DNA of 41,972 nt from Escherichia phage vB_EcoS_fTaEco03. Below are positions 3,870 through 39,760 of the stretch, piece after piece. Position 1 is the stretch's first letter. Every line of letters starts with the position of its first letter. The position numbers and the translations under genes are program-made. The notes under the pieces are model-generated. The model saw only the letters and a list, made by a program, of their open reading frames with translations, was not told the origin of the DNA and did not search any database. Location: the sequence record MT711528.1, one strand, 5' to 3'.

Positions 3870-4330
3870 TGATGGGCTTTTTCAAAGTAACTGACGTACC
3901 GTCTCGTCGCGTAGTCCAGTACGCCCGCGTGTCTGGCTCTGGCGAGAACGTGGTGTTTATTGAAGACGAAAGTGTACTCGGAACACCAGTGGACGATATG
4001 CCGTTTGCGGACAAGACCGGTATTGCGCTGCCAGCGGCAGGTATGCTTTATGAGATTCAGTACCTGGCGGATGCTGGTGATGTGTATTTCTCCGTACAAC
4101 CGCAGGACGCTGAACTGGCAGACGGCAGCGCAAATATCGCTGTCGAAGTTAAGGCGGGCAAAGCACCATATGCGCTGACCTGGTACAAAGACGGGAAGGA
4201 AGTGGTAAACGCCCCGGAAGAGGCTCTGTCTCTGACGGTTAACGCAGTTGGTGAATACTTCGTTAAAGTCACTGATGCCGACGGTATAGAGGCCGTAAGT
4301 AAGGCAGCGAAGGTTACTAAGCCAGAATAA
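3869..4330 (+). CDS. Hypothetical structural protein, possible Ig-like C-terminal domain
   Basis: 153 aa ORF whose ATG overlaps previous stop (TAATGATG); followed by strong terminator 4335-4356. Confidence 0.45.
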   Translation: MMGFFKVTDVPSRRVVQYARVSGSGENVVFIEDESVLGTPVDDMPFADKTGIALPAAGMLYEIQYLADAGDVYFSVQPQDAELADGSANIAVEVKAGKAPYALTWYKDGKEVVNAPEEALSLTVNAVGEYFVKVTDADGIEAVSKAAKVTKPE

Positions 4331-4334
4331 ACTG

Positions 4335-4356
4335 AAGCCCCGAAAGGGGCTTTTTA
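4335..4356 (+). terminator. Rho-independent terminator
   Basis: aagccccGAAAggggctt stem-loop followed by TTT. Confidence 0.7.
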
Positions 4357-4406: not shown

Positions 4407-4421
4407 ACTATTCGAATAGTT
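4406..4421. promoter_or_regulatory. Perfect 16-bp palindrome AACTATTCGAATAGTT abutting -35
   Basis: Self-complementary 16-mer read directly; overlaps first base of TTGACT. Confidence 0.5.
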
Positions 4422-4448
4422 GACTTTTCACCAAAAATGTGCTAAGCT
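4420..4448 (+). promoter_or_regulatory. Sigma70-like promoter (TTGACT - 17 bp - TGcTAAGCT extended -10)
   Basis: -35 TTGACT 4420-4425, -10 TAAGCT 4443-4448 with upstream TG; homologous copy at 34949-34977. Confidence 0.55.
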
Positions 4449-4451
4449 CCA

Positions 4452-4489
4452 CCTGAGCTTGTGAAGTATGAACAAGCGACCGCGGCGCG
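4452..4489 (+). promoter_or_regulatory. Conserved 38-nt promoter-proximal leader element, copy 1
   Basis: CCTGAGCTTGTGAAGTATGAACAAGCGACCGCGGCGCG identical to 34981-35018; contains hairpin GCTTGT-N9-ACAAGC. Confidence 0.6.
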
Positions 4490-4626
4490 GGCAGGTAACG
4501 GAGCGGGACGTAAGTCCTGAGTGTAGTTACGCTGACGCGTTCGGAAGGGCCATACTCTATTGCTTGTGTAAAAAGTAACTGGTTTACTGAGATTACGCCG
4601 TTTCTATGTTTAAATGATAAGGACTA

Positions 4627-7592: not shown

Positions 7593-8207
7593 ATGGCAAA
7601 GACCAAAACAGAGATATTTGCCCTTATCGGCGCTAACCTTCCCGATAACACCACCGGGCTTATCACACCCGAGAAGTTACGCGAAGTAATGACGCAGATG
7701 GCAGATTCGCCTATCTATGCCACTCCCGGGGTGAAAGAGGTAGAAGTTCTCCGTGCCACGTCAACCGTGGCGCAAGCGCCTACCGCAGTAGATACAGCGT
7801 TACAGTTAACTTTCGGGGCTGCGCAGGGAGGCGCGTCTAACCCGGTAATGATTAATGCCGCAGGGCTTGTTACATTCAACACCGCTGGTAACTACGCCGT
7901 TCGCATCAAGTTACAGGCGGGGCGTACTGGCGCTAGTGGGACATCAATCCTGCTATCACGTATTTTAGTAAACGGTGCTCAGTACGGCTCTCCCGCAGCA
8001 ACTAAGCTGGTAAGCGCCGACATAACAATTCCTATTGAGTCCCGCGTTGTTATTAGCCCAACCGCAGGCCAGACGTTTGCCGTTCAGATTATGCGGGATA
8101 GCTCCGGGGCTAACTTTGGCGGCGTATACCCTCAAGCGGCTACCGTAACCGCATGGGGCACAGCGCCTTCTGCGCTACTGGTTATTTCGAGACTGGAGGC
8201 CGCCTGA
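7593..8207 (+). CDS. Structural protein, hypothetical
   Basis: 204 aa ORF, 2-nt gap from previous gene. Confidence 0.45.
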   Translation: MAKTKTEIFALIGANLPDNTTGLITPEKLREVMTQMADSPIYATPGVKEVEVLRATSTVAQAPTAVDTALQLTFGAAQGGASNPVMINAAGLVTFNTAGNYAVRIKLQAGRTGASGTSILLSRILVNGAQYGSPAATKLVSADITIPIESRVVISPTAGQTFAVQIMRDSSGANFGGVYPQAATVTAWGTAPSALLVISRLEAA

Positions 8208-9466: not shown

Positions 9467-10635
9467 ATATGGCTACAACTCCTTTTAAGGGCGCGAATAC
9501 TGCGCAATTCTATGTGGCAGAAACTACCCCTGGCGTAACACCGACTAACCCGGTCTGGTCGCCATTGCGCAACACAGGTGGCGTTCCTGCCATTACCCGC
9601 GACACGCTGACCTCCAACGAACTGGACGGCAGCCGTGAAACTACGTCAATCCGCACCGGTAACAAACAGGTTAGCGGAGAATACGCTATTGAGCTTAGCT
9701 CGAAAAGCCAGGATGACTGGCTGGCGGGAGCTTTAGGCTCTACATGGCAATCCGGTAGTTCTCTGACCGGGCTATCAATTACCGTCGCGCCTGCAGACAA
9801 GACCTTTACCCGTGCCGAAGGTAGCTTTATTTCTGACGGCGTTGAAGTGGGCGACCTGATTGCGTTTACCGACTTAACCGGTGACAACGCAAAACCGTTT
9901 ATCGTAACTGCAGTAGAGGCGCTGGTAGTGACCGGGGCGGGTATCCAGCATACCCTGACCACAGAGACAGTAACTACCGCCGCTAAGACAGGGGATAAAC
10001 TGGAAACGGGAAGCCAGTGCAAGACGTTCTCTATTCTCACCTGGTACAAAGGCCAGTGCGGCGGGACTGACGCGTACACACTAACCAAAGGCGTGGAAGT
10101 TTCTGGTTTTACCATCGAACAGGCTGTTAACGCTATGGTAACTGGCAGCTTCCCGTTCATCGGTCGCAGTCAGGAGATTCTCACCACGCAGCCGTCTGGT
10201 TCTGATTTCTCCTCTGTTACGTTTGGTGACGAGCCATTCTCCTCGGTCGATGTTTCTGTGTTCGACGGTTCTACGCCGTTGCGTTGCGACAGCCTGACCA
10301 TCACCAACGACAACAGCGCGTCCGCACAGTTCGAACTCGGCAACACTAACGTAGCGTTTGTGGAGCGTAGCCGAGCAGCTAACACCTTCTCCATCTCCGG
10401 TAAGCTGTACGACATGGCGATGATTCAGAAGTTTATCAACGAGCAGCAGGTGGAGATTAACTCTATTCTGGCTGGGGTAAACGGGGCTATGTCTTTCAGT
10501 TTGAAACGTGCAGAACTTACGGCGGTTACACCTGAGATTGGAGGACCTGAGTCAATCACTCAGTCTATTGAAGGCCAGGCTACTGGCAACCAGTACCAGT
10601 CGTCTATTGTTATTCAGCGTATCACATACGCATAA
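9463..10635 (+). CDS. Major tail protein (putative)
   Basis: 390 aa ORF, last gene before bidirectional terminator; position upstream of chaperone/tape-measure genes. Confidence 0.5.
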   Translation: MNMATTPFKGANTAQFYVAETTPGVTPTNPVWSPLRNTGGVPAITRDTLTSNELDGSRETTSIRTGNKQVSGEYAIELSSKSQDDWLAGALGSTWQSGSSLTGLSITVAPADKTFTRAEGSFISDGVEVGDLIAFTDLTGDNAKPFIVTAVEALVVTGAGIQHTLTTETVTTAAKTGDKLETGSQCKTFSILTWYKGQCGGTDAYTLTKGVEVSGFTIEQAVNAMVTGSFPFIGRSQEILTTQPSGSDFSSVTFGDEPFSSVDVSVFDGSTPLRCDSLTITNDNSASAQFELGNTNVAFVERSRAANTFSISGKLYDMAMIQKFINEQQVEINSILAGVNGAMSFSLKRAELTAVTPEIGGPESITQSIEGQATGNQYQSSIVIQRITYA

Positions 10636-10639
10636 AACT

Positions 10640-10663
10640 AAGGCCCCGTTTGGGGCCTTTTTC
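10640..10663. terminator. Bidirectional terminator between converging genes
   Basis: aggccccGTTTggggcct with T-run on plus and A-run upstream (T-run on minus). Confidence 0.7.
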
Positions 10664-20206: not shown

Positions 20207-23161
20207 ATGTCAAGCGGATGTGGTGACGTTTTAAGCCTGGCGGATTTACAGACCGCCAAGAAGCACCAGATTTTTGAAGCCGAGGTTATCACGGGTAAAT
20301 CCGGCGGAGTAGCCGGGGGCGCAGATATTGATTACGCGACAAACCAGGTTACAGGGCAGACCCAGAAGACACTACCTGCCGTGTTGCGTGACGCTGGTTT
20401 TAAACTGGCAGATTTTGATTTCACGTCAGGCGGTACACTATCCGCTAACGACCGAAACACCGCAGTTTTGTGGCCGTCGTCCTCTGGTGGCGATGGGGAT
20501 TGGTACCATTGGTTGGGCGCTCTGCCAAAAACTATCCCGGCGTCATCTTCTCCGCAGTCCACCGGTGGCGTGGCAGATGGGGCGTGGCAGCCTGTCGGGT
20601 CGGTCATACTGCGGCAGCAAATATCTGATGTAAACGGTGCAATTCTGTACCCAGATTTACATGTGGCGCGATGGAAGGACGAATACGACCCGCGCGCATG
20701 GGGCGCCGTGGGCGACGGCGTAACTGATGATACTCAATCTATTTTTAATGTATTAGCAGCTTCCCACAACAATTGGATTATAGACGGCAGGGGCTTGACT
20801 TATAAAGTTTCCCAATTACCTGACATTAGTAAATTTAAGAATGCTGCATTCGTTTACGAGCGCGTAGCTGGGCAACCGCTTACTTATGTAGCTGATGGCT
20901 TCTTTAACAGCTCACTAACTAAGGTGACGGATACCCCGTTCTACAACGCATGGACGCAGGATAAAACTTTCGTCTACGACAATGTTATTTACGCTCCCTT
21001 TATGGCAGGCGAACGACATGGCGTTCAAAACTTACATGTAGCTTGGGTTCGCTCTGGTGACGACGGGCAGACTTGGTCAATGCCTGAGTGGTTGACCCCA
21101 ATCCATGCTGACTATAATGCTAGTGTTTCCGCGGACAGAGTTAACTACCACTGCATGAGCATGGGTACGTGCGGCAACCGATTATATGCAGTTATAGAAA
21201 CCCGCTACTTATCTAATATGCGGATGAAGAAGGCAGAACTTTGGTCACGCCCAATGCCGTATTTTAGACACCCAACCGGCGGAATAACTATTAGTTCTGG
21301 TTCCACTACTGCTACCATTGTTATAGAAAATCACGGCCTAAAAGCAGGAGATGCGGTTAACTTCTCTAATACATCGGCAACTGGCGTATCGGGTAATATG
21401 ACGGTTGCGTCTATAATTAACCGAAATACGTTCACTGTTACGCTCTCAAGCCCGGCGAGTTCCACCATAAACAATGCGGGTGTTACCTGGAACTTCGCAA
21501 CGCGATTCTGGGACAGCCCGTGGGAAATTACCGAATTGCCTGGGGTAGCATACTCCACTAACGCTGATTTGTGTGTCACGGAGACACATAGTTTTGCGGT
21601 TATAGACGATGTTAACTACACTATCGCTGTCGGCTATCACAACGGCGATGTGTCCCCTAGGCGTCTCGGTGTCTTGTATTTTAGTAACGTGTATGACAAT
21701 CCTGGCGTATTCGTTCGTCGCACTGTCGCTCAGGCATACGCTGATAACGCTTCTGAGCCGTGCGTGAAAAGTTATGGTGGTGTGTTATACCTTACCACAC
21801 GCGGCACATTACCTACTTCCCCTGGCTCTACACTGGCGATGAGCACCGATTCTGGGCAAAACTGGAGCTACTTGCGATTTCCGAACAATGTACATCACTC
21901 CAATCTTCCGTTCGCTAAAGTAGGTGACTATCTCTACATCTTTGGTACAGAACGTGCCTTTGGTGAGTGGGAAGGTGGTGAGCAGGACAGCCGCTATGAA
22001 GGTTCGTATCCGAGGACCTTTATGTGCAAAGTTAATGTGTCGTCCTGGCCTTCATCTTTAGATGATGTTCAGTGGTTTAATATTACCGACCAAATATACC
22101 AGGGTCATATCGTTAACTCTGCTGTCGGCGTCGGCTCGGTCTGTGTTAAAGATGGCTGGTTGTACTATATCTTTGGTGGGGAAGACTTCTTCTCTCCCTG
22201 GAGCATAGGGGATAACAGTGCGAAGTTATGGTACAAACATGATGGGCATCCGGCTGACTTATATAGCTACCGGATAAAGATTGAAGACCACCCGTATGTA
22301 TCCCGTGATTTCAAATACGGAGCAACTCCTAACCGTACACTACCTGTCGCCATGGGGGTAGATGGTGTACGTCATGTAGGGGCACCTTTAACATTTGATA
22401 ATGATGTAAGCGTGTACTCACTGCATGTAACGGGGCTGGAATACGATGGTACACAACAGTCCGCCGTGCGTGCACAGTTTGATGGTGATTACGGGCTGAT
22501 TTCAAAAACAGTCCCCACTAAAAACCCATCGGGTCAAAGACTGATAGTTAGCGGTGGTGATGGTGTATCCAGTTCCGATGGTGCGTTGCTGCAACTGTAC
22601 GGGGCAAACCATGCAACGCCTAACAGGGCTATTATGTATGCGTCAGGAGGCTTCTACTCATACAACAATTTTCTTCCTTACTTAGACTCGCAAGTGTCTT
22701 TAGGTTCGGCAGGTAATAGGTGGACTACGGTGTACGCGACCACCGGTACGATAAATACGTCTGATGGTACACTTAAGACGAATAAAGAGGAAATTGAGGG
22801 ACAACTCCTTACCGCATGGGAAGATATACATGTAATATCTTTTAAGTGGCTTGAAAGCCTAGCAATCAAGGGTGACACTGCAAGGATACACTTCGGTGTG
22901 ATAGCCCAAGATGTGCGAGACATCTTGGTCAACCATGGGCTTATGGAGAAAGATTCTACCGATTGTAAATATGCTTTCTTGTGCTACGACCCAATTGAAG
23001 CTGCGTATGATATTGATGAAGATGGCCAGACTGTACAAGTATCCCCTCCCGGCGGCAGATGGGGGGTTAGGGCGGACCAGATGTTCTTCATAGAGATTGC
23101 CTATCAGCGTAAGAAGATGCGCGAGTTCGAGAAGAGGCTGGCAGCACTAGAAGATAAATAA
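20207..23161 (+). CDS. Tailspike with sialidase-like Asp-boxes and C-terminal intramolecular chaperone (putative endosialidase)
   Basis: 984 aa; Asp-box motifs SGDDGQTW and STDSGQNW; C-terminal ~150 aa resembles self-cleaving chaperone domain with S-D-G-T-L-K motif. Confidence 0.65.
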   Translation: MSSGCGDVLSLADLQTAKKHQIFEAEVITGKSGGVAGGADIDYATNQVTGQTQKTLPAVLRDAGFKLADFDFTSGGTLSANDRNTAVLWPSSSGGDGDWYHWLGALPKTIPASSSPQSTGGVADGAWQPVGSVILRQQISDVNGAILYPDLHVARWKDEYDPRAWGAVGDGVTDDTQSIFNVLAASHNNWIIDGRGLTYKVSQLPDISKFKNAAFVYERVAGQPLTYVADGFFNSSLTKVTDTPFYNAWTQDKTFVYDNVIYAPFMAGERHGVQNLHVAWVRSGDDGQTWSMPEWLTPIHADYNASVSADRVNYHCMSMGTCGNRLYAVIETRYLSNMRMKKAELWSRPMPYFRHPTGGITISSGSTTATIVIENHGLKAGDAVNFSNTSATGVSGNMTVASIINRNTFTVTLSSPASSTINNAGVTWNFATRFWDSPWEITELPGVAYSTNADLCVTETHSFAVIDDVNYTIAVGYHNGDVSPRRLGVLYFSNVYDNPGVFVRRTVAQAYADNASEPCVKSYGGVLYLTTRGTLPTSPGSTLAMSTDSGQNWSYLRFPNNVHHSNLPFAKVGDYLYIFGTERAFGEWEGGEQDSRYEGSYPRTFMCKVNVSSWPSSLDDVQWFNITDQIYQGHIVNSAVGVGSVCVKDGWLYYIFGGEDFFSPWSIGDNSAKLWYKHDGHPADLYSYRIKIEDHPYVSRDFKYGATPNRTLPVAMGVDGVRHVGAPLTFDNDVSVYSLHVTGLEYDGTQQSAVRAQFDGDYGLISKTVPTKNPSGQRLIVSGGDGVSSSDGALLQLYGANHATPNRAIMYASGGFYSYNNFLPYLDSQVSLGSAGNRWTTVYATTGTINTSDGTLKTNKEEIEGQLLTAWEDIHVISFKWLESLAIKGDTARIHFGVIAQDVRDILVNHGLMEKDSTDCKYAFLCYDPIEAAYDIDEDGQTVQVSPPGGRWGVRADQMFFIEIAYQRKKMREFEKRLAALEDK

Positions 23162-23165
23162 AACT

Positions 23166-23187
23166 AAGGCCCCAAACGGGGCCTTTT
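23166..23187. terminator. Bidirectional terminator between tailspike and minus-strand replication operon
   Basis: aaggccccAAACggggcctt followed by T-run; near-identical to hairpin at 10640. Confidence 0.7.
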
Positions 23188-25753: not shown

Positions 25754-26038
25754 TTAACTATAATAGCTCGCTATTAGGTCGTCAACCTGTTTAAACGAAC
25801 CAACGATAAAAACATTTGCACCGCGTTTACGCATCCGCTCGTGCTCACGTATCTGGTGCGGGTCTGGCTTCGTGTTTTCGTCTTTCTTAACCTCGACGAA
25901 CCATATGACGCCGCCAGGGAGAATTACCAGCAGGTCGGGAGCGCCGGAGCGCCCCTCGTAGGAGAGCTTACGAACGAGGCCGCCGATGGCCTCGAATCGC
26001 TCTTTTGCGTATTTCTGTATTTTGCCTTCCGGTGTCAT
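25754..26038 (-). CDS. VRR-NUC-like PD-(D/E)xK nuclease
   Basis: ~94 aa from ATG 26038 (track began at TTG 26053); motif PDLLVILPGG...VEVKK. Confidence 0.5.
   Translation of the reverse strand: MTPEGKIQKYAKERFEAIGGLVRKLSYEGRSGAPDLLVILPGGVIWFVEVKKDENTKPDPHQIREHERMRKRGANVFIVGSFKQVDDLIASYYS
25757..25785 (-). promoter_or_regulatory. Promoter family member (TTGACG - 17 - TATAGT) with AATAG-N4-CTATT inverted repeat
   Basis: Minus strand reads TTGACGACCTAATAGCGAGCTATTATAGT. Confidence 0.55.
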
Positions 26039-29257: not shown

Positions 29258-29310
29258 CGTGATTTCTCGCTTTTCAGTTTACTCCGGGAACTGCCCGGCC
29301 AGTGATTAGA

Positions 29311-29339
29311 ACTATAATAGCTAACTATTCGGGTGTCAA
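29311..29339 (-). promoter_or_regulatory. Promoter family member (TTGACA - 17 - TATAGT) with AATAG-N4-CTATT inverted repeat
   Basis: Minus strand reads TTGACACCCGAATAGTTAGCTATTATAGT. Confidence 0.55.
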
Positions 29340-29343
29340 CACT

Positions 29344-31634: not shown

Positions 31635-31665
31635 TTGTTTCTCTCCTCTCGTTTGGTATGGGCTA

Positions 31666-31694
31666 ACTATAATAGCGAACTATTCACTTGTCAA
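31666..31694 (-). promoter_or_regulatory. Promoter family member (TTGACA - 17 - TATAGT) with AATAG-N4-CTATT inverted repeat
   Basis: Minus strand reads TTGACAAGTGAATAGTTCGCTATTATAGT; divergent from HTH regulator gene. Confidence 0.6.
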
Positions 31695-31758
31695 TGGGCT
31701 TTTCTAAAATAATTAATATGGTACTATTCACATATCAACTGACTAAGGAGTAATTGGC

Positions 31759-34948: not shown

Positions 34949-34977
34949 TTGACTTTTACTAAGAAATATGGTAAGCT
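34949..34977 (+). promoter_or_regulatory. Sigma70-like promoter (TTGACT - 17 - TGgTAAGCT), twin of 4420-4448
   Basis: Same -35, spacer length and extended -10 as promoter at 4420. Confidence 0.55.
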
Positions 34978-34980
34978 CAG

Positions 34981-35018
34981 CCTGAGCTTGTGAAGTATGA
35001 ACAAGCGACCGCGGCGCG
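34981..35018 (+). promoter_or_regulatory. Conserved 38-nt promoter-proximal leader element, copy 2
   Basis: Identical 38-mer to 4452-4489; downstream blocks TCTATTG and TTACTGA also shared. Confidence 0.6.
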
Positions 35019-35163
35019 CGGCAGGCGAAACGAGCACGTGTAACGTGTGGAGTGAGGCTCGCTGGCGCGTTTGGGAGGCCCAAAGTCTATTGTAATTCCC
35101 GCCTAATTATCTAAGTTACTGATTTGCCGTAGGTTAGAACCGCCAGCTCACTCACTCACTCTT

Positions 35164-35700: not shown

Positions 35701-35879
35701 TGCGAATCCGTATAACTGACCGCAGGCTTATCCGTATAACTGACCGCAGGCTTATAGATTTCTGTATCTCGGTAGGTGATGTTTTTCCGGCGTTCAGCAT
35801 CAACCATTATGGTTTTATGATTGAGTACAAAGGGTCGTTATTGTTCGTGTATCGGGATGAATGTGAGGTTCTGGTATGA
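35700..35879 (+). CDS. Small ORF containing 24-bp tandem repeat (repeated RITDRRLI peptide)
   Basis: ATG overlaps previous TAA; spans direct repeats 35706-35753. Confidence 0.3.
   Translation: MRIRITDRRLIRITDRRLIDFCISVGDVFPAFSINHYGFMIEYKGSLLFVYRDECEVLV
35706..35753. repeat. Perfect 24-bp tandem direct repeat x2 (ATCCGTATAACTGACCGCAGGCTT)
   Basis: Two identical adjacent copies read directly. Confidence 0.85.
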
Positions 35880-37479: not shown

Positions 37480-37686
37480 ATGGTACAGAGATATGATTTA
37501 ACAGAAGACTGCGTGAGTGGCACGGTAGATATAACGCCTGTCCCGGACTCGCATGAAGGGCGTTATGTGGCCTACGAAGATTACGCGAAACTGGAGCGCA
37601 AACTGCGTGAGCTTGCTAAGCAGGTAGTAAACAGTCCGTGCGACTGGAAGACGGATGAATTGGCGCGCGAGATTCTCGGAATATGA
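37480..37686 (+). CDS. Hypothetical protein (68 aa)
   Basis: ATG 37480; ATGA overlap with next gene. Confidence 0.4.
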   Translation: MVQRYDLTEDCVSGTVDITPVPDSHEGRYVAYEDYAKLERKLRELAKQVVNSPCDWKTDELAREILGI

Positions 37687-37976
37687 GCCTGGCAACTGAC
37701 ATCCTGAAACGAAGCGGCCTTGCGCCGCTGTCGCCGAGAGCTAAAACACAGATATACAAGCGCCGCCGTAACGCGCTGTACCCTGAGATTCAGGCCCGAC
37801 GCAAAGCTATCCGCGCCTGTGGCTTCCAGAACGGGAAGGCCGTGAATCTCGGTGAGTTCAAAACACAGGAACGTGCAGCTATAGCTAATCGGTTATTTAA
37901 TTACTGGAAATCGCTTGGATACGATGATATTCCGACGAAACCACAGAGACGACAATACATCTGGAGACATAAATAA
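37683..37976 (+). CDS. Basic protein (97 aa), hypothetical
   Basis: K/R-rich; its last 110 nt fall in the duplicated 299-bp unit. Confidence 0.45.
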   Translation: MSLATDILKRSGLAPLSPRAKTQIYKRRRNALYPEIQARRKAIRACGFQNGKAVNLGEFKTQERAAIANRLFNYWKSLGYDDIPTKPQRRQYIWRHK

Positions 37977-38165
37977 ACCGTTATTAAGATAATTCCTACC
38001 CGTGGTATCCTCCAGTTACTGCATACTTAATACGCACCTGGAGGATTCATCTTGGATAAATTTACTGAAACAGTGACGGGGTGGCTTCTCGCTGCCGCAC
38101 TAGCCGGAGGGGTTATCGGACTACGACAACATAAGTCCGTTATTTCTGGCCCTATCGACGGATTC
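37867..38165. repeat. 299-bp tandem direct repeat, copy 1
   Basis: Identical to 38166-38464 at every position compared. Confidence 0.9.
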
Positions 38166-38183
38166 AGGAACGTGCAGCTATAG
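38052..38183 (+). pseudogene. Truncated holin 5' fragment created by the duplication (43 codons)
   Basis: Same start context as holin gene at 38351; frame ends at TAG 38181-38183 after the repeat junction. Confidence 0.4.
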
Positions 38184-38464
38184 CTAATCGGTTATTTAAT
38201 TACTGGAAATCGCTTGGATACGATGATATTCCGACGAAACCACAGAGACGACAATACATCTGGAGACATAAATAAACCGTTATTAAGATAATTCCTACCC
38301 GTGGTATCCTCCAGTTACTGCATACTTAATACGCACCTGGAGGATTCATCTTGGATAAATTTACTGAAACAGTGACGGGGTGGCTTCTCGCTGCCGCACT
38401 AGCCGGAGGGGTTATCGGACTACGACAACATAAGTCCGTTATTTCTGGCCCTATCGACGGATTC
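38166..38464. repeat. 299-bp tandem direct repeat, copy 2
   Basis: Identical to 37867-38165. Confidence 0.9.
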
Positions 38465-38659
38465 TGCTTTATTGCTACTGGTTTCGCCTGCGCTGTATTT
38501 GGCGCACCTCTCGCGGCTCAATGGTTCGGTATCACGGGCGACCGTGAAATCGCTGGCCTTGGCTTCATCATCGCTATTCTCTGGATGCCTATCTATTCCC
38601 GTCTCTCCAGTATCGTCGCTGGAGAATACATCGCGCGTCGAGGAGGCACAGATGAATGA
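38351..38659 (+). CDS. Holin (three hydrophobic segments), putative
   Basis: ~100 aa with three hydrophobic helices and charged C-terminus RRGGTDE; start TTG 38351 or GTG 38372; precedes lysozyme. Confidence 0.55.
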   Translation: MDKFTETVTGWLLAAALAGGVIGLRQHKSVISGPIDGFCFIATGFACAVFGAPLAAQWFGITGDREIAGLGFIIAILWMPIYSRLSSIVAGEYIARRGGTDE

Positions 38660-38924
38660 GTTATTCTGGTTCGGCGGTATGCTGGCAATCGGCGGCACAT
38701 CGCTGTTTAATGTATACCATCCGAGCGTGGATGACGGGCTATTTGGTCGGGTGCTCTATATCCTGACTGCTATCGTCTGCGCTGCCGGATGTATCCACCT
38801 GTTACAGGGCAGCATGTCACCAACGCTGCCTGAGACATTAATCACATTAGTTGCGCTGCGCCAGATTCGCCAGGCGTGGCTGTCATACGGAGGGCATAAG
38901 CGTGTCTCGAAACATTTCAGATAA
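38652..38924 (+). CDS. Second holin-like / lysis membrane protein
   Basis: Start refined to ATG 38652 (AGGAGG RBS, overlaps holin stop); 90 aa with two hydrophobic helices. Confidence 0.5.
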   Translation: MNELFWFGGMLAIGGTSLFNVYHPSVDDGLFGRVLYILTAIVCAAGCIHLLQGSMSPTLPETLITLVALRQIRQAWLSYGGHKRVSKHFR

Positions 38925-39390
38925 TGGATTGCATTTTACCGCCGCATGGGAGACTTTCTGCGGAACTGCGTATCGTGCTACGCCGAACGAGAAGTACCTG
39001 ACTATTGGTTATGGTCACTACGGGCCAGACGTAACACCAGGTAAGACCATCACACCAGGACAGGGCTTGCTGTTACTGAATCGCGATATGGCTAAGGCTG
39101 TAGCTGCTGTTGACGCAGCAGCACACCATTCGCTTACACAGGCACAGTTCGATGCGGTGTGTGACCTGGTCTATAACGCAGGTGCTGGTGTGATAGCAGC
39201 TACTACCGGAACCGGTAAGGCGCTGCGTTCGGGTGATATTACGACGCTGCGGGCTAAGCTGGCGCTGTTCATCAACCAGAACGGCAAACCGTTACTTGGC
39301 CTGCGTCGCCGTACCGCAGGACGTCTGGCATTGTTCGACGGTAAACCGTGGCAGGAGGCTGAGGCTATTGGGCGCGCGGTGAAAGGTTGA
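38902..39390 (+). CDS. Endolysin, GH24 phage lysozyme family
   Basis: Start GTG 38902 (GGAGGG RBS); lysozyme-like N-terminal signature W-E ... TIGYGH and FDAVCDLVYNAG. Confidence 0.75.
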   Translation: MSRNISDNGLHFTAAWETFCGTAYRATPNEKYLTIGYGHYGPDVTPGKTITPGQGLLLLNRDMAKAVAAVDAAAHHSLTQAQFDAVCDLVYNAGAGVIAATTGTGKALRSGDITTLRAKLALFINQNGKPLLGLRRRTAGRLALFDGKPWQEAEAIGRAVKG

Positions 39391-39454
39391 CACCTGAGAC
39401 TAATCCGACGATACTTAAATCACCTCCTGCTCCATCCCTCTGCTCTCCAGTTTT

Positions 39455-39508: not shown

Positions 39509-39537
39509 TTGACTATTACCATCGACCCTATTATATT
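39509..39537 (+). promoter_or_regulatory. Sigma70-like promoter (TTGACT - 17 - TATATT)
   Basis: Read directly upstream of gene 39572. Confidence 0.5.
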
Positions 39538-39571
39538 TACTCCATAGACAACGAGAACGGAGTAGAGAGAA

Positions 39572-39760
39572 ATGATGACTAAGATTAAGCATACCGATAA
39601 CTGGGGTGATTTCATGGAGATAGAGAAATGCCGTGACGGGACATTACTTATAATTTGTACAGACGGAGATACCGACGAATCAGTTAGTGTTAACGTGAGT
39701 ATGGATGATTTTATGATTATTGTTGAGCAAGTGGCGGCTTTTTACGGAGATGATAAATGA
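39572..39760 (+). CDS. Hypothetical protein (62 aa)
   Basis: ORF with GGAG-containing RBS; ATGA overlap downstream. Confidence 0.45.
   Translation: MMTKIKHTDNWGDFMEIEKCRDGTLLIICTDGDTDESVSVNVSMDDFMIIVEQVAAFYGDDK

Follow-up and report, generated by a model that had tools for sequence, protein, structure and literature searches.

A perfect 299-bp tandem duplication at the start of the lysis cassette in one Kagunavirus record: assembly overlap or very young duplication

Introduction

Spontaneous tandem duplications have long been known in phages, with classical cases in lambda, T4 rII and P22. These duplications lie head to tail, create one novel junction and leave an intact copy of each gene that they interrupt; they are tolerated within headful capacity and are expected to be unstable. 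Duplications that arise by recombination or slippage usually have breakpoints with microhomology of a few bases, a common feature that is not obligatory. In phage stocks, any particular spontaneous duplication is rare.

Perfect repeats can also be produced during genome assembly. Short-read phage assemblies routinely yield contigs with identical ends, an artefact that has to be removed before a genome is reordered (bioRxiv 10.64898/2026.07.08.737226), and some assemblers give a repeat at each contig end (PhageTerm paper, PMC5557969). An untrimmed overlap of a circular contig, which apc.pl removes and which CheckV may take for a DTR, is characterized by perfect identity without microhomology, by an arbitrary position relative to genes and by a record that has been closed and re-ordered.

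A third group of systems bears on repeats that reach into holin genes. In lambda (S105/S107) and phage 21 (S68/S71), dual starts yield a second product that contains the holin N-terminal region and is made from the same translational signals. Known antiholins are either near-full-length versions of the holin that differ by few N-terminal residues or the products of separate, dedicated genes.

Here, we analyze a tandem repeat in the record of Escherichia phage vB_EcoS_fTaEco03 (MT711528.1), whose 41,972-nucleotide sequence, the window, was examined along its whole length. The repeat shares the head-to-tail arrangement, the one novel junction and the intact gene copies of classical phage duplications; however, those were proven physically or genetically, whereas this one is known from one sequence and has 1 nt of microhomology. 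It resembles an untrimmed overlap in its perfect identity, its arbitrary position and its closed, re-ordered record, but its copies are internal and adjacent and do not lie at the record ends, so that rotation without trimming would be required, and its 299 nt exceed the usual default k-mer overlaps. If real, it would also encode a second product with the holin N-terminal region behind the same translational signals, as the dual-start holin genes do, although this product is a 43-aa fragment that lacks the second and third transmembrane segments and is conserved in no relative.

Results

A circularized and rotated Kagunavirus genome

The window is a complete Kagunavirus (Guernseyvirinae) genome, that of an E. 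coli siphophage specific for the K1 capsule, and an endosialidase tailspike is present in its closest relatives. The closest genomes, vB_EcoS_fKuEco01 (MT711525) and vB_EcoS_fTaEco01 (MT711527), are collinear with it at 97.7–98.2% identity. Base 1 is the ATG of TerL, as in these two siblings, both of which are flagged circular, and the TerS frame crosses the record origin to end in the first 4 bases (...NMGEVEE, then the stop). A TerS frame that spans the origin of a record starting at the TerL ATG indicates that the sequence was circularized and rotated, and the former contig ends must therefore have been joined somewhere inside it.

Kagunaviruses appear to package their DNA by the headful mechanism. 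The TerS of relatives is annotated as P22 gp3-like, a headful system, and Terminase_6N/6C domains are present in TerL. In the 43,466-bp genome of the Kagunavirus fBC-Eco01, PhageTerm detected no termini (PMC9825357), and termini were not determined for another member of the genus (PMC13507304). Relatives have genomes of 40.6 to 45.6 kb. TerL had no match in a PDB sequence search.

Elsewhere in the window, the segment 7667-8118 is absent from the two closest genomes. The ORF spanning it (7593-8207) encodes 204 aa, compared with two short ORFs (58 and 32 aa) in the siblings, and lies between connector and tail genes. The segment has the appearance of a mosaic replacement within the structural module.

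A 299-bp array with one novel junction

Two adjoining 299-bp units occupy positions 37866-38164 and 38165-38463 on the plus strand, and a direct string comparison found them identical at 299 of 299 positions. A repeat search likewise recovered 299-bp units at 100% identity with a spacing of 299, and Tandem Repeats Finder, run on the array, reported a period of 299, 2.0 copies, 100% matches and a score of 1198. Chance as the source of such a repeat is out of the question. The register of the array can be moved 0 nt further leftward and 1 nt (C) further rightward; the perfect tandem duplication that the initial annotation had placed at 37867-38464 is the same array, one base off. The window holds no second long perfect repeat, the next direct repeat being 70 nt long at 87% identity.

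Each unit consists of the last 111 nt of an upstream gene, the 75-nt leader of the holin gene and the first 113 nt of that gene, in agreement with the earlier description of a gene end, an intergenic region and the 5' part of a holin gene. The resulting order is a 97-aa gene, the 75-nt leader, a 43-codon ORF, an orphan gene fragment, the leader again and a 102-aa holin. The novel junction at 38164/38165 reads ..GACGGATT/CAGGAACG.. and can also be written as ..CCTATCGACGGATT/CAGGAACGTGCAGC.. Microhomology at the breakpoints amounts to 1 nt (C), the level expected by chance, as determined by string comparison and checked as well against the breakpoints of the siblings.

Genes interrupted by the duplication

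The upstream gene is intact at 37683-37976 (plus strand; 97 aa, phrog_9632), and the duplication begins exactly at its codon 62. Its second, partial copy occupies 38165-38275 (plus strand) and comprises codons 62-97 and the stop, as seen in the sequence and the ORF list; this is the orphan 3' fragment that had been noted before. The fragment is out of frame with the 43-codon ORF and contains no in-frame ATG, GTG or TTG, so it is presumably untranslated.

The 43-codon ORF (38052-38183, plus strand) is chimeric. It encodes holin residues 1-38 followed by RNVQL, a tail that derives from the upstream-gene fragment read out of frame, and it is assigned to phrog_2359 with an E value of 8.5e-5. From the holin, the product would retain the N-terminus, first hydrophobic segment and loop, and it would stop just before the second hydrophobic segment. 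The ORF list confirmed this truncated holin ORF at its annotated position, and its start context, which had been claimed to equal that of the full gene, is indeed the same in leader, Shine-Dalgarno sequence and TTG codon.

The intact holin gene (38351-38659, plus strand) encodes 102 aa from a TTG start, belongs to phrog_2359 ("holin"; E = 1.4e-29) and is annotated as class II holin-like in relatives. Hydropathy places hydrophobic segments at three sites (about residues 9-24, 38-58 and 66-84), the first of them Ala/Gly-rich, and the C-terminus reads ...ARRGGTDE. Residue 38, where the second segment starts, marks the duplication breakpoint. Downstream, and outside the duplication, are a second holin-family gene (38652-38924, plus strand; 90 aa, phrog_2508 "holin", class I holin-like in relatives) and an endolysin gene (38902-39390, plus strand; 162 aa, Phage_lysozyme, PF00959, also annotated as endolysin in relatives) whose product has no N-terminal hydrophobic segment. 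The endolysin gene begins 243 nt downstream of the 102-aa holin gene. Family assignment, the annotation of relatives and the second holin and endolysin downstream all speak for the holin identity proposed in the initial annotation, and the 102-aa protein has the features predicted of a holin, being small, with transmembrane segments and a charged C-terminus, and encoded beside an endolysin. Pfam searches with both holins and the upstream protein identified no families, and we found no experimental literature on the function of the phrog_2359 holin family. The class labels used in relatives run opposite to the usual definitions, since hydropathy gives the 102-aa protein (class II holin-like) three hydrophobic segments and the 90-aa protein (class I holin-like) two.

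A conserved hairpin in the holin leader

The duplicated leader is predicted to fold into a hairpin (-20 kcal/mol, z -2.2). Copy 1 lies at 38007-38046 on the plus strand, with arms ATCCTCCAG (38007-38015) and CTGGAGGAT (38038-38046); copy 2, at 38306-38345 on the same strand, is identical and directly upstream of the intact holin gene. The GGAGG Shine-Dalgarno sequence (38040-44) is located inside the 3' arm of the hairpin, and the TTG start follows 7 nt further on. Across 43 Kagunavirus leaders, the TTG start is constant (43/43), and 15 of the 16 leader variants share the same 9-bp stem; the sole change, A to G, keeps a G.U pair. An invariant stem suggests that the hairpin is conserved, but supplies no proof by covariation. 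The constancy of the stem contrasts with the divergence of the holin protein, which goes down to 77% identity. The predicted hairpin would sequester the Shine-Dalgarno sequence, an arrangement reminiscent of the translational control of lambda S. An Rfam search with the leader gave no match. A weak promoter-like site with 9/12 matches is also duplicated within the unit.

The junction in other genomes and metagenomes

Comparison with sibling isolates had been proposed as a check on the duplication, and fKuEco01 and fTaEco01 each carry one copy. Alignment to these genomes omits exactly one unit, and their breakpoints are plain ancestral sequence. We also searched 50,697 phage records by megablast with a 140-nt junction probe. 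Seventy records matched the probe, and every match of full coverage consisted of two pieces in the single-copy order, none of them contiguous; the junction was absent from 195 related GenBank phages. Exact scans for the junction found no match in IMG/VR, in GTDB genomes (one per species) or in JGI metagenome contigs. Likewise, 40 holin-encoding Kagunavirus loci from IMG/VR contained no direct repeat within 1.5 kb on either side.

Searches at the protein level covered NCBI, ENA and Logan. Sixteen contigs encode the exact 102-aa holin and 20 the exact 97-aa protein, and the junction occurred in none of the listed contigs with an identical holin or upstream protein. The exact 43-aa product was not found in any public assembly. 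Where the two genes are adjacent among the matches listed, the 97-aa gene ends 75 nt before the holin start; two matches have an extra gene in between. OZ035754 was considered as a second case of duplication and rejected, as it carries a mosaic insertion of ~430 bp between the upstream gene and the holin gene. Altogether, nothing comparable was present in more than 250 Kagunavirus genomes or contigs. Judged by these sequences, all of which come from other strains (~97-98% identity at best, and ~97% or less for the contigs with identical proteins), the duplication is private to this record, although privacy alone does not make a duplication false.

Four independent Kagunavirus contigs from IMG/VR (L006, L018, L031 and L038) end within ~70 bp of one another, just downstream of the endolysin gene. 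We considered these ends, which lie ~1 kb downstream of the holin gene, as a related break and rejected the idea: they scatter over ~39530-39600 and do not fall at the duplication. Near these contig ends lies a strong promoter-like site (TTGACA-17-GATACT, 39387-39415). The clustering of the ends could stem from a convention for where records start, or from an assembly break that recurs.

Candidate small RNAs and other repeats in the window

Two paralogous elements lie on the plus strand at ~4420-4565 and 34949-35095. In each, a near-consensus sigma-70 promoter (TTGACT-17-TAAGCT) precedes a conserved predicted transcript of ~100 nt, placed at 4452-4565 and 34981-35095. We collected 47 instances from the window, the two siblings and 42 IMG/VR loci, representing 29 distinct variants, of which 19 were aligned. 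In this alignment, the predicted structure pairs 97.3% of cells, compared with 32-48% for slid partners, and the covariation score of 0.181 exceeds those of the shuffles (0.069) and of the slid partners (at most 0.076). At several pairs, both bases are replaced and pairing is retained (for example, CG to UA and GC to CG, in either direction). Rfam found no match anywhere in the window, both elements included, and our literature search turned up no link between Kagunavirus and small RNAs; in relatives, a hypothetical CDS of 36 aa is annotated across the first copy. We regard the two elements as a candidate pair of phage small RNAs that has so far gone undescribed.

Other elements were observed as well. 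A perfect 24-bp tandem repeat of 2.1 copies (ATCCGTATAACTGACCGCAGGCTT) occupies 35706-35755 in the early-gene region, and the motif AACTATAATAGC..GTCAAC occurs three times in the replication module (25756-25786, 29310-29340 and 31665-31695). Elements that combine a GC-rich hairpin with a T-run, at 4326-4355, 10632-10661 and 23158-23187, resemble intrinsic terminators.

Discussion

The initial annotation had left open whether the perfect repeat reflects a very recent event or an assembly artefact. The perfect identity stands, and the evidence leans toward the artefact: the record is rotated, the junction is private and the breakpoints lack microhomology beyond a single base. Specifically, we consider it somewhat better than an even bet (probability roughly 0.55) that the second copy is an in-silico product, an untrimmed contig-end overlap that was joined on rotation. 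The assembler would have produced a linear contig of a circularly permuted genome, with ends overlapping by 299 identical bases and situated, as we infer, at 38164/38165. Closing this contig and rotating it to the TerL ATG without trimming the overlap would then leave an internal, perfect head-to-tail duplication, at a site that is arbitrary and merely happens to be the start of the lysis cassette. The genome of the real phage would measure 41,673 bp and contain the upstream gene, the leader and the holin gene once each, exactly like those of its relatives, and the 43-codon ORF would not be present in the virus.

What favors this artefact reading is the combination of rotation, perfect identity, 1-nt microhomology, single-copy siblings and a private junction; the two copies abut at 100% identity, and the record holding them had been closed and re-ordered. 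The repeat length equals 300 - 1, the size of an overlap of k-1 or of read length minus one, which is suggestive but carries little weight. Against it, 299 lies outside the commonest default k values and matches no k-mer overlap that the most popular assembler gives by default. Nor is such a repeat present in the sibling records, which follow the same start convention. If all three records come from one laboratory, as the start convention and ~98% identity suggest, overlaps are normally trimmed there, and the read-mapping checks that this laboratory reports for its assemblies (PMC9825357) should expose a false junction. Moreover, if a real duplication is very young, other strains are just as likely to lack the junction.

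The principal competitor is such a duplication: a genuine, very recent and neutral or nearly neutral event, generated by illegitimate recombination that needs practically no homology, or by a replication error, and fixed by the single-plaque bottleneck of phage isolation. We hold this to be possible but clearly the less likely account, and even when neutral and adaptive versions are pooled, a genuine duplication falls short of an even chance. The deposited sequence does contain the duplication, each affected gene keeps one intact copy and zero divergence is what a young event predicts. At 41,972 bp the genome is well inside the capacity indicated by relatives of 40.6-45.6 kb, and with packaging apparently by headful and relatives of up to 45.6 kb, an extra 299 bp should be tolerated. 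That the siblings show no untrimmed overlaps would point to careful curation, if they share a source with this record. Set against these points are the microhomology of just 1 nt and the fact that no independent second occurrence appeared in the phage collection, IMG/VR, GTDB, JGI or NCBI/ENA/Logan. In addition, short-read assemblers have difficulty resolving a perfect tandem repeat of 299 bp, whereas mis-circularization generates one easily, and untrimmed overlaps are common in records (bioRxiv 10.64898/2026.07.08.737226; PMC5557969). With 299 bp of perfect homology, a real duplication should be lost by recombination unless selected.

Selection could in principle act on the second leader and the 43-aa membrane peptide, and a version of the genuine reading holds that the duplication was kept as advantageous, with the peptide interacting with the full holin and shifting lysis timing. 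The ORF has the exact leader, Shine-Dalgarno sequence and TTG start of the holin, so that the peptide, if real, would be made at roughly holin-like rates, and it ends precisely before the second hydrophobic segment. The Ala/Gly-rich first segment and the duplicated weak promoter-like site (9/12) are compatible with such a role, and in the phage 21 pinholin an N-terminal transmembrane domain times hole formation (bioRxiv 10.1101/2021.04.20.440580). All of the arguments against a real duplication apply here as well, however. An antiholin would be expected to bind and inhibit its cognate holin and to be conserved beside it, and the 43-aa ORF is absent from all relatives, with no conservation across more than 250 Kagunavirus genomes or contigs; zero divergence leaves no time for a signature of selection. 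We found no precedent in the literature for duplications of the holin region that tune lysis time, and an effect of the peptide is pure conjecture. The earlier suggestion of altered lysis timing is thus conceivable, given an N-terminus, first segment and loop behind an identical ribosome-binding site, but we found no support for it, and we consider adaptive retention improbable. A shade less probable still is that the record caught a real duplication within generations of its origin, and with it the one-step birth of an antiholin-like 43-aa peptide that modulates holin triggering. Least probable of all is that the two copies are direct terminal repeats of linear virion DNA, brought together when a termini-completed sequence was rotated to TerL. 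PhageTerm can output genomes completed with repeats (PMC5557969), and rotation of such an output gives exactly this picture. Yet no PhageTerm termini were detected in fBC-Eco01 (PMC9825357) and none were determined in the other Kagunavirus (PMC13507304), the records of relatives are flagged circular and a terminus that cuts two coding genes would be unusual. The P22 gp3-like TerS of relatives and the Terminase_6N/6C domains of TerL point indirectly to headful-type packaging, which makes a true 299-bp terminal repeat unlikely.

Neither an assembly overlap nor a genuine duplication is novel: one is the familiar untrimmed-overlap error, displaced inward by rotation, and the other a classical phage tandem duplication. 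If the second copy is an artefact, the record is 299 bp too long, and its lysis cassette includes an ORF and a gene fragment that are both spurious; comparative or lysis-gene analyses would then take the repeat for biology, and the record needs correction. If it is real, it is an ordinary tandem duplication, unstable and very young, of a type long familiar from phages, and the transcript is longer by 299 nt that carry a second leader and the 43-codon ORF. Should the duplication be real and the truncated holin fragment measurably change lysis timing, the phage would offer a clean and natural point from which to study the origin of antiholin-like regulators.
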